Positions 30,627 through 31,460 of a stretch of DNA of 64,000 nt are shown here, in pieces. Made by a program: the position numbers and the translations under genes. Numbering within the stretch: position 1 is the first letter of the stretch; every line of letters starts with the position of its first letter. Source of the stretch: Shigella phage Henu11; sequence record OM953433, one strand, 5' to 3'. The notes beneath the pieces are model-generated. The model saw only the letters and a program-made list of their open reading frames with translations, was not told the origin of the DNA and searched no databases.

Positions 30627-30698
30627 CAGAAGACCAATTACAGCAAACAAATTTTTCAATTTCGCGCATAGAAATCCAAAAAAGATTTGGTCTGGTCA
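30627..30698 (+). ncRNA. structured repeat element a (5' arm CAGAAGACCAA, 3' arm TTGGTCTGG)
   Basis: member of a repeat family with paired terminal arms; directly upstream of the tRNA at 30707. Confidence 0.3.
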
Positions 30699-30706
30699 TT
30701 AAGAAT

Positions 30707-30780
30707 TGCGGGTATAGAGAAAGGGCGTCTCACATGTCTCATTAGCATGTTATCGGTAGGTTCGACTCCTACACCCGCCT
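30707..30780 (+). tRNA. tRNA with CAT anticodon (Met or Ile-lysidine)
   Basis: acceptor tgcgggt/acccgcc with 1:72 mismatch; anticodon arm catgt-ctcatta-gcatg; T-arm gtagg-ttcgact-cctac. Confidence 0.55.
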
Positions 30781-30788
30781 CCAATTTT

Positions 30789-30857
30789 ACAGAAGGCCGT
30801 TTACAGCAAACACTTAAAATTTTTTATAGGCAAAAATGAAAAGATACGGTCTGGTAA
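30789..30857 (+). ncRNA. structured repeat element b (5' arm CAGAAGGCCGT, 3' arm ACGGTCTGG)
   Basis: same family; directly upstream of tRNA-Asn. Confidence 0.3.
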
Positions 30858-30866
30858 TACTAACAT

Positions 30867-30940
30867 GGTTAGGAAGCACATAAGGCATGTGCGGTCGGCT
30901 GTTAACCGAATGGTACAGGGTTCGAATCCCTGACTAACCG
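30867..30940 (+). tRNA. tRNA-Asn (GTT)
   Basis: acceptor ggttagg/actaacc; D-arm gcac-ataaggcat-gtgc; anticodon loop ctgttaa; T-arm caggg-ttcgaat-ccctg. Confidence 0.7.
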
Positions 30941-31012
30941 CCAAGATTTGGGAGAGAAGCGATTGCTCACCGATTTGTAAGGTGCAAGTCCTTAGCCTGA
31001 ATAGAATAAAAT

Positions 31013-31097
31013 GCGTCGTTATCCCGTAGATGGAAGCGGTGGTGACTGTAAATCACTTGTCATTATGACTCGGGAGGTTCGACTCCTTCACGGCGCA
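31013..31097 (+). tRNA. tRNA-Tyr (GTA), type II
   Basis: 85 nt; acceptor gcgtcgt/acggcgc; anticodon arm ggtga-ctgtaaa-tcact; long variable arm; T-loop ttcgact. Confidence 0.65.
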
Positions 31098-31106
31098 CCA
31101 AATAAA

Positions 31107-31180
31107 GGTTATGTAGTTTAACTGGTCAAAATACCTCCCTGTCACGGAGGATGATGAGGGTTCGAATCCCTTCGTAACCG
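31107..31180 (+). tRNA. tRNA-Asp (GTC)
   Basis: acceptor ggttatg/cgtaacc; anticodon arm cctcc-ctgtcac-ggagg; T-arm gaggg-ttcgaat-ccctt. Confidence 0.75.
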
Positions 31181-31244
31181 CCAAATTTGAGAGGGCTTTT
31201 TAGCCCCTCCCTTAAAGAGTTCTTACGAGTATTCTTTAAAGGAG

Positions 31245-31320
31245 CAGAAGACCAAATACAGCAAGCAATTTTAATATTTCAAGCCAATTTAATTTGAAAA
31301 ATTTAAAACTTGGTCTGGTT
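31245..31320 (+). ncRNA. structured repeat element c (5' arm CAGAAGACCAA, 3' arm TTGGTCTGG)
   Basis: same family. Confidence 0.3.
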
Positions 31321-31332
31321 CCAACAATTTTA

Positions 31333-31460
31333 CAGAAGACCGTTTACAGCAAACAATAAACAATCTATTTCTCTGATAAAGAAAAGGCGAAGGTTCGAAT
31401 CCTTCACACGTTACGGCGTGTTGGTGTAATGGAAGCACTTAAGATAAATACGGTCTGGTA
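31333..31460 (+). ncRNA. structured repeat element d enclosing a tRNA-like module
   Basis: arms agaccgt/acggtct; interior has anticodon-arm-like hairpin tttct-ctgataa-agaaa, T-arm gaagg-ttcgaat-ccttc, hairpin acacg/cgtgt, D-arm-like gtg-taatggaag-cac. Confidence 0.35.

Follow-up and report, generated by a model that had tools for sequence, protein, structure and literature searches.

Four structured elements in the tRNA island of Shigella phage Henu11 are probably Y-RNA-like RNAs encoded beside a gene for a protein with a predicted Ro60 fold

The tRNA island of Shigella phage Henu11 (sequence record OM953433, of which a stretch of 64,000 nucleotides, hereafter the window, was analysed) harbours four elements, designated a to d, that constitute a real structured RNA family. 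Sequence comparison and structure modelling suggest that they are probably Y-RNA-like small non-coding RNAs, the putative partner of which, a DUF2828 protein resembling Ro60, is encoded directly upstream. Y RNAs are recognised by their binding to Ro60, by closeness to its gene, and by a terminal stem that contains a conserved motif, those of bacteria having a tRNA-like domain in addition (PMC4201824); the bacterial representatives are encoded within 2 kb of rsr and contain T, acceptor-stem (AS), and D modules (Chen et al. 2014, PMC4201824). Henu11 belongs to the Ounavirinae; the identity of the region is 99.2% to Shigella phage Sf15, a member of the genus Mooglevirus, and 84-95% to FelixO1-like phages. 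The island comprises 26 tRNA genes on the + strand at positions 30455-35854, as determined by ARAGORN.

A previous reading of the window from the sequence alone had proposed that four non-tRNA elements share a 5′ arm and the 3′ sequence GGTCTGG, that their arms pair by compensatory changes in a conserved RNA stem, and that two of them are located directly upstream of tRNA genes. These claims withstood scrutiny. The pattern CAGAAGRCCNNWTACAGCAARCA, representing the 23-nt 5′ arm with up to three mismatches, yielded four matches in the window, all on the + strand (30627, 30790, 31245, and 31333), and none in shuffled sequences, and GGTCTGG follows 40-110 nt 3′ of the arm in each of the four copies. 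Folding of the single copies revealed a common frame consisting of an outer stem P0 of 3 bp, an asymmetric AGA/G internal loop, a stem P1 of 7 bp, an unpaired strand, and a variable interior; the 3′ side of the frame is formed by the P1 3′ strand followed by G. The elements are listed below with their parts as derived from the folds and with the scores obtained with two covariance models, R1 for the short form and R2 for the long form, the E-values of which are rough due to a short calibration.

30625..30697, + strand: element a, short form, R1 58.5 bits; P0 GAC 30625-27 / GUC 30695-97, loop AGA / G30694, P1 30631-37 / 30687-93
30638-49, + strand: motif UU-ACAGCAAACA of element a, followed by an AU-rich apical hairpin
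30788..30856, + strand: element b, short form, R1 61.9 bits; P0 UAC/GUA, P1 AGGCCGU 30794-800 / ACGGUCU 30846-52, motif 30801-12
31243..31320, + strand: element c, short form, R1 63.4 bits; P0 AGC/GUU, P1 31249-55 / 31310-16, AU-ACAGCAAGCA 31256-67
31331..31460, + strand: element d, long YrlA-like form, R2 96.9 bits and, with filters off, R1 48.8 bits; P0 UAC/GUA, P1 31337-43 / 31450-56, motif 31344-55

P1 is formed by AGACCAA/UUGGUCU in a and c, by AGACCGU/ACGGUCU in d, and by AGGCCGU/ACGGUCU with one G:U pair in b, and P0 likewise covaries among the copies. The single-stranded stretch after P1 reads (U/A)U-ACAGCAA(A/G)CA in the window copies. Elements a and b are flanked by tRNA genes, starting 5-6 nt after the preceding tRNA and ending 10 nt before the next one, which is tRNA-Met (30707) for a and tRNA-Asn (30867) for b. 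R1 has no match in the remainder of the window. ARAGORN calls none of the four elements, and Rfam assigns no family to them at the gathering score or at E≤10, the only matches being chance-level ones to Dicty_Class_I_RNA at 19-22 bits. In the Ounavirinae the four elements are present as syntenic orthologues; they are without annotation in Sf15, the one deposited record inspected.

Taken by themselves, the four window paralogues provide thin covariation, namely two P1 positions and one G:U pair. Pairing of P1 reaches 99% in the 16 seeds, which had been chosen for pairing. It is still 98% in 29 model hits whose loci did not contribute to the seeds, although one seed sequence turns up again among them; two-sided changes are seen at all seven pairs (67 cells), and pairing drops to 27-49% when the 3′ partner is slid by one to three columns. 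It is these homologous elements of distant phages that establish the conserved stem proposed for the window copies. The long-form alignment shows pairing of 96% in P1, 95% in the T arm, 90% in the acceptor-like helix, 79% in the D helix, and 77% in an extra hairpin, compared to approximately 40% in slid controls, and the closing G-C pair beside the T loop is invariant (39/39). The YrlA architecture, in which the two ends pair into the stem bearing the protein-binding site and a large internal loop comes next, has a predicted counterpart here, with P1 being 96-98% paired and with A-rich unpaired strands on both sides in the long form.

The search for the elements in related phages, which the sequence-only reading had recommended, revealed them not only in synteny within the Ounavirinae but also beside DUF2828 genes in distant phages. 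Two sets of loci were used, comprising 80 viral contigs, each with a gene for a DUF2828 homologue (identity 38-44% in most cases) and turned to put that gene on the + strand, and 80 DUF2828 loci from bacterial and archaeal assemblies and metagenome-assembled genomes (MAGs). All 160 loci were picked via the protein only, without any RNA criterion. In the distant phages the ACAGCAA motif directly adjoins the gene within the same frame but with wholly different P1 sequences, as exemplified by AGAUUCC-AU-ACAGCAAACA...GGAAUCU-G in locus L013 and AGGUUCC-UU-ACAGCAAACA...GGAACCU-G in L015. The resulting family consensus is 5′-A-G-R-N4 / N-U / WCMGCAA ... N4-Y-C-U-G-3′, with ACAGCAA being the version in the window.

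When both strands of the viral loci (986 kb) were searched with R1 at E≤1, all 76 hits were located on the gene strand. They stem from 47 of the 80 loci; 39 hits lie within 300 nt of the gene and 63 within 1 kb. R2 yielded 72 hits at E≤0.01, likewise all on the gene strand; partial R2 matches on ordinary tRNAs (model positions 27-106) represent cross-matches of the T and D arms and were not counted as members. The genome and MAG loci gave 39/39 (R1) and 40/40 (R2) hits on the gene strand, mostly not more than 350 nt from the gene. Moreover, a model-free rule, requiring a 7-bp P1, two bases, WCMGCAW, and the partner strand plus G within 300 nt, returned 261 gene-strand instances in 125 of the 160 loci as opposed to 44 on the opposite strand. 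The motif with a perfect 7-bp partner and G was observed 105 times on the gene strand, where 17.8 instances are expected, and 11 times on the other strand, where 10 are expected. The 274 rule-based instances contain 174 distinct P1 5′ strands, and 146 of them fall into a short class of up to 90 nt that leaves no room for a tRNA-like module. In the rule-defined gene-strand set we counted 195 G:U pairs, which would be mismatches on the DNA complement; together with the T-loop sequence and the strand bias, these pairs indicate that the + strand is the transcribed one.

Phages of Proteobacteria, Firmicutes, and Actinobacteria and many metagenomic lineages carry the signature next to DUF2828, on the strand of the gene. 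The elements are located 3′ of the stop codon in many loci and within tens of nucleotides of the gene in many others. In the window they are found 337-1043 nt downstream of the DUF2828 gene on the same strand, and 337-1432 nt downstream across the Ounavirinae loci, hence within the approximately 2 kb from a Ro60/Rsr gene that is typical of YrlA, with the caveat that the likeness of the protein to Ro60 is here one of predicted fold only. R1, run with filters off, had no match in two negative controls, the tRNA islands of T5 and slur16, where no DUF2828 gene is seen in the stretches fetched. The initial reading had noted neither the link to the adjacent Ro60-like gene nor the tRNA-like module of d, nor how widely the family is distributed.

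28874..30289, + strand: gene for the 471-aa DUF2828+DUF7788 protein (Pfam), the proposed RNA partner

The gene ends 166 nt upstream of the first tRNA of the island. Besides the two Pfam domains, the only ones to pass in the Pfam search, its product matches PHROG 850 ('RNA-binding protein'). An AlphaFold2 model based on a 76-sequence alignment (predicted local distance difference test score, pLDDT, 90.6; predicted template modelling score, pTM, 0.89) was compared with the PDB by Foldseek, and the top 11 matches were all Ro60/TROVE chains aligned over the full length (E 3e-9 to 1e-6), among them Xenopus Ro60, D. radiodurans Rsr, and the Ro60 of Thermus phage phiLo. In addition, the MIDAS-type DxSxS (D279/S281/S283) is invariant in the protein family, and 17 of 76 relatives weakly match Pfam vWA_Ro60. 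Given these three observations, the gene product is predicted to be a divergent protein with the Ro60 fold, that is, a HEAT-repeat ring followed by a vWA domain with a MIDAS site. A sequence search of the PDB with the protein and its profile gave no match to solved structures, Ro60 chains included.

Homologues of the DUF2828 protein of the window are encoded in 709 deposited phage genomes (tblastn), including FelixO1-type, P100-type Listeria, Campylobacter, large Vibrio, Bacillus, Staphylococcus, and mycobacterial phages, and the mycobacteriophage homologues are already annotated as 'Ro-like RNA binding protein'. In the Felixounavirus Bas63 the protein gp130, encoded just upstream of tRNAs, has been reported to be structurally Ro60-like and to counter the Ppl defence (PMC11482910). 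Because of this position upstream of the tRNAs, we regard gp130, by synteny, as the orthologue of the DUF2828 gene of the window.

Members of the RNA family adjoin the gene in Campylobacter phage CPX and Bacillus phage FADO as well. In Mycobacterium phage Nicholas a short, a long, and a short element are located just 3′ of the gene, followed by a G+C-rich hairpin and a U tract resembling an intrinsic terminator. Listeria phage cka15 contains three tandem copies (L082 3611-3883) with a TTGACA/TATCAT promoter-like site 5′ and the gene 3′ of them. Locus L061 has five elements, two of which comprise full permuted tRNA modules with acceptor-like loops reading ...ACCAUG.... A further observation in L061 is a family member at 8517-8613 that encloses a tRNA-like body in ordinary order (Rfam tRNA 55 bits, anticodon UCU); a nearby tRNA at 9088-9164 with a CUA anticodon resembles an amber suppressor.

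The interior of element d is, judging from its sequence and the modelled folds, a circularly permuted tRNA body consisting of a T arm, an acceptor-like hairpin, and a D arm.

31363..31445, + strand: tRNA-like module of d (sequence reading and minimum free energy, MFE, folds)
31363-66 / 31442-45, + strand: candidate closing stem AUCU/AGAU, 4 bp (our sequence reading only)
31368-84, + strand: anticodon-arm-like hairpin UUUCU-CUGAUAA-AGAAA, 5 bp with a 7-nt loop
31385-88, + strand: linker AGGC
31389-405, + strand: canonical T arm GAAGG-UUCGAAU-CCUUC
31406-21, + strand: closed acceptor-like hairpin ACACG-UUACGG-CGUGU, followed by UG
31424-38, + strand: D arm GUGU-AAUGGAA-GCAC

The T, acceptor-like, and D hairpins were recovered independently by MFE folding of d and 22 relatives (23 long forms). 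As in YrlA loci, at least one RNA contains a tRNA-like domain, which in d covers 31389-31438 and recurs in many relatives. None of the four elements conforms to the RF00005 cloverleaf with its standard order and paired 5′ and 3′ acceptor ends. The Rfam tRNA model (RF00005) nevertheless gives a marginal match of 30.4 bits on 31339-31413, a chimeric match covering the motif, the hairpin, and the T arm only, which is explained by the permuted tRNA body in d.

How such RNAs could be generated and used is suggested by the surroundings of the island, including two sites found by consensus scan.

30398..30427, + strand: candidate TG-extended sigma-70-like promoter TTGACA-18-TATAGT ahead of the tRNA island (consensus scan only)
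30308-30336, + strand: second, weaker promoter-like site (consensus scan)

The first terminator-like site on the + strand after the promoter-like site at 30398-30427 is located at 35977-36027, with none seen in between by scanning. The elements would therefore be co-transcribed with the tRNAs from this promoter-like site as a polycistronic precursor and could be released by the enzymes that excise the flanking tRNAs, namely RNase P and 3′ trimming activities, with P0 and P1 serving as protection. The Ro60-like ring may then bind the invariant parts of the RNAs, namely the three outermost pairs of P1, the G at the 3′ side, and the ACAGCAA strand, and the variable apices, AU-rich hairpins in a to c and a tRNA mimic in d, could tether or gate the protein toward other factors. 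These might be exoribonucleases of the host or enzymes that handle tRNAs, reminiscent of the Y RNA loops that serve PNPase in the Rsr system. For a phage Ro60 of the TROVE type, binding to two Yrl RNAs of the phage and to host PNPase is reported (PMC12135203). In the infected cell the system would probably control the turnover or repair of RNA, with a possible tie to counter-defence.

Several observations weigh against the Y-RNA-like interpretation. The canonical Ro-binding motifs, i.e., the bacterial GNCGAAN0-1G and the metazoan GGUCCGA bulged helix, are absent from the elements, RF02553, the YrlA family, does not match a to d at E≤10 (gathering score 69 bits), and the DUF2828 protein has no sequence-level match to Pfam TROVE (PF05731). 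Counting in favour, long-form relatives do match RF02553 at 37.9 bits (Nicholas) and 31.4 bits (L061), which is below gathering and concerns the tRNA-like part only. About one fifth of the DUF2828 loci are without any element by the rule, many of them being short contigs. Furthermore, alignments fitted to a model lean toward its structure, and related sequences that are counted repeatedly inflate the number of covarying cells. At the level of function, gp130 alone counters Ppl, either on a plasmid or moved into T7 (PMC11482910), and therefore at least the Ppl phenotype needs no phage RNAs. Lastly, the P1 3′ strand and G merge into the Shine-Dalgarno sequence of the DUF2828 gene in L008 (AAUUCUGGAGG) and L023 (AAACCUGGAGA). 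As to the junctions themselves, they read ..CUGGAGG at L008 1759-1806, ..CCUGGAGA at L023 4980-5060, ..CUUGGAGA at L072 5911-5980, and ..CCGGGAGG at L116 2931-2996.

This last arrangement raises the question whether the elements are mainly cis operators, on which the DUF2828 protein or a processing enzyme would bind P1 and the motif in the transcript and control its own translation or tRNA maturation, the released RNAs being functionless. Besides the fusion to the Shine-Dalgarno sequence in several distant loci, the placement of elements within tens of nucleotides of the gene in many phages and their embedding in a tRNA precursor in the window speak for such a role. However, in the window and the other Ounavirinae promoter-like sites and two tRNAs separate the elements from the gene, which lies 337-1432 nt upstream of them, in many loci they follow the stop codon, there are three to five copies per genome with differing apical modules, and an operator would not require the covarying T, acceptor-like, and D helices of the tRNA-like module. 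As a general explanation we therefore deem it unlikely; in phages with P1 directly at the ribosome-binding site, cis regulation is a serious competitor, and it suits the Henu11 window poorly. As the P1 3′ strand and G run into the Shine-Dalgarno sequence where an element abuts the 5′ end of the gene, this suggests that there the protein could also repress its own translation. Still less probable, in our estimate, is that the elements are tRNA-mimic decoys or sponges that act independently of the DUF2828 protein and titrate, for instance, tRNA-modifying enzymes or those defence nucleases of the host that attack tRNAs, the linkage reflecting a shared 'RNA toolbox' locus. Such a function would fit the near-canonical T loop UUCGAAU, the D loop AAUGGAA, and the 7-nt anticodon-like loop CUGAUAA of d, as well as the location in a tRNA island, given that phage tRNAs are known counter-measures to anticodon nucleases (as cited in PMC11482910). 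Yet three of the four elements and more than half of the rule-based instances (146/274) are short forms without room for a mimic, and what is conserved throughout the family is P1 and ACAGCAA rather than the mimic. Moreover, the T5 and slur16 islands, which are without DUF2828, have no such elements, and the proximity to the gene, with 39/76 hits within 300 nt, is far tighter than a shared locus requires.

Decayed tRNA genes, or selfish repeats resembling miniature inverted-repeat transposable elements (MITEs) with 7-bp terminal inverted repeats that spread in tRNA islands, perhaps aided by an HNH endonuclease, would account for a stem of acceptor-stem length, the partial tRNA match in d, the HNH open reading frame (ORF) nearby, and the ordinary tRNA-like body enclosed by the L061 element. 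These readings were rejected and are hardly credible, since they are largely refuted by compensatory change, strand bias, and synteny: motif and helix persist among phages with proteins of only 30-45% identity even as compensatory changes alter the stems, the strand bias of the R1 and R2 hits is absolute and the rule-defined set includes the 195 G:U pairs, and the Ounavirinae copies are syntenic orthologues rather than scattered, none of the window elements being called by ARAGORN.

The interpretation of a to d as Y-RNA-like RNAs can be extended, although we give this extension only a small chance. Accordingly worded as a conjecture, DUF2828 and the ACAGCAA RNAs might represent a distinct phage-borne branch of Ro60-Y ribonucleoproteins (RNPs) for modular counter-defence or tRNA surveillance, in which the ring would bind the invariant P1/ACAGCAA handle and the apex of each paralogue would address a different host or phage factor. 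Element d might recruit RNase P, the CCA-adding enzyme, TruB, or RtcB-type ligases and thereby protect or repair the phage tRNA pool against host nucleases.

Earlier work guessed at Y RNAs without identifying any: the authors of the Bas63 study supposed that Y RNAs might hide among the annotated tRNAs (PMC11482910), and those working on CKA15 that abundant transcripts might be Y RNAs (PMC12282133). In the literature searched, no paper was found in which the present RNAs are defined. A searchable RNA signature, two covariance models, and exact coordinates are now supplied, and the proposed RNA partners of Bas63 gp130, an experimentally validated counter-defence protein, are open to experimental manipulation. 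The three hyper-abundant RNAs reported for CKA15 were considered as family members; the one with published coordinates, 26,236-26,727, was rejected, as it corresponds to a ROOL RNA instead (RF03087, 90 bits). More precisely, L082 2422-2973 (26195-26746 of the cka15 record) scores 90.1 bits with RF03087 (E 4.5e-17), just below the gathering score of 99.1, and is located amid tRNAs approximately 1 kb upstream of the DUF2828 gene. This region corresponds to the annotated ORFs 059-061 and is published as the top phage transcript with up to 67% of phage reads (PMC12282133); for the cka15 family members at L082 3611-3883 the text consulted documents no expression. The CKA15 DUF2828 homologue was detected in purified virions (PMC12282133).

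Genes for RNA repair or quality control often neighbour DUF2828, as seen for an RtcB-type 'tRNA splicing ligase' in cka15 (L082 6804-8015); further neighbours are a Band7-like protein in Nicholas (L083 1731-2663) and phage tmRNA genes (L044 11715-12132 and L023 1317-1767).

The island contains other structured or unusual sites. The 148-nt spacer directly after d (31461-31608) has an MFE of -52.1 kcal/mol (z about -5.8 vs shuffles), is closed by a long stem AUCAUCUUUGCAGUGAC / GGUUACUGCAAAGAUGAU, and has no Rfam match. Two more inter-tRNA spacers are structured, 31685-31764 (80 nt, z -4.3) and 33749-33844 (96 nt, z -3.6); neither belongs to the family or matches Rfam. The latter contains the segment 33783-33840 that had been put forward as a related element, a claim that did not hold, as it gives no covariance-model hit (filters off, E≤10), folds into a different hairpin, and shares only GAAGACCGU. 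At 32890-32975 a tRNA-like sequence called neither by ARAGORN nor by Rfam comprises a 7-bp acceptor stem AUGGGAC/GUCCCAU with an adjoining G-CCA, the T arm GGGG-UUCGAUU-CCUC, and a 9-nt loop CCUCCAAAA on the anticodon-like stem GUAAG/CUUAC, and may be a degenerate or unusual tRNA. Finally, a 161-aa ORF with HNH-type motifs and no Pfam hit at E≤0.01 (31859-32344) lies between tRNA-Met and tRNA-Ile, its end overlapping the start of tRNA-Ile; it is absent in Sf15, where these tRNAs are 2 nt apart, and looks from its sequence like a recent homing-endonuclease insertion.

Among known systems, the tRNA cluster of phage T4 likewise encodes small stable non-tRNA RNAs, 'species 1 and 2' (rnaC and rnaD), which are co-transcribed and co-processed with tRNAs and have no known function. 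T4 has, to our knowledge, no DUF2828 gene, and the parallel is an analogy of context only. With tRNAs themselves (RF00005) element d shares a T arm, a D arm, a 7-nt anticodon-like loop, an acceptor-like helix, and tRNA-type conserved bases; however, its order is circularly permuted and loop-closed, so that it would possess no free acceptor end or CCA, and a to c are without any tRNA parts. In contrast to metazoan Y RNAs and Ro60 (PDB 1YVP), the phage RNAs have neither the bulged GGUCCGA helix nor an oligo-U/La tail, belong to other size classes, and are embedded in a tRNA operon behind a sigma-70-like promoter, from which tRNA enzymes would excise them. Yrl1 and Yrl2 of Thermus phage phiLo (PMC12135203; PDB 9KOP, 9L5Y) were picked by a CGAA motif and have a TROVE-annotated partner; they contain no ACAGCAA motif, no tRNA-like module is reported for them, and they are located upstream of the gene and not inside a tRNA array. 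Binding and PNPase recruitment are experimental findings in phiLo, whereas the Henu11 elements are known from sequence and predicted structure.

The closest likeness is to YrlA/Rsr (RF02553). In both cases the RNAs are encoded beside the gene for a Ro60-fold protein (in the phage a predicted one) on the same strand, their ends, in the phage by prediction, pair into a stem that leads into a conserved strand and then a large A-rich internal loop, and at least one RNA per genome contains a (V)-T-AS-D module with canonical T and D loops that is entered via the stem made by the ends, with shorter, YrlB-like hairpin RNAs alongside. Some relatives resemble M. smegmatis YrlA in having a 7-bp acceptor-like stem ending in ...ACCA. 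The two systems differ in the motif, which is N-U-WCMGCAA beside an A-G-R...Y-C-U-G helix in the phage and GNCGAAN0-1G in YrlA, in the partner protein, which belongs to Pfam DUF2828/DUF7788 and not to TROVE, and in the embedding of the phage RNAs in a phage tRNA operon. Because the tests for the YrlA binding motif and for Rfam membership fail, as does the TROVE match of the protein, we file the RNAs as an ACAGCAA-type Y-like class with DUF2828 Ro60-like proteins, distinct from the YrlA family. If true, this would be a second, differently recognised class of Y RNAs and would inform how Ro60-type rings read their RNAs.

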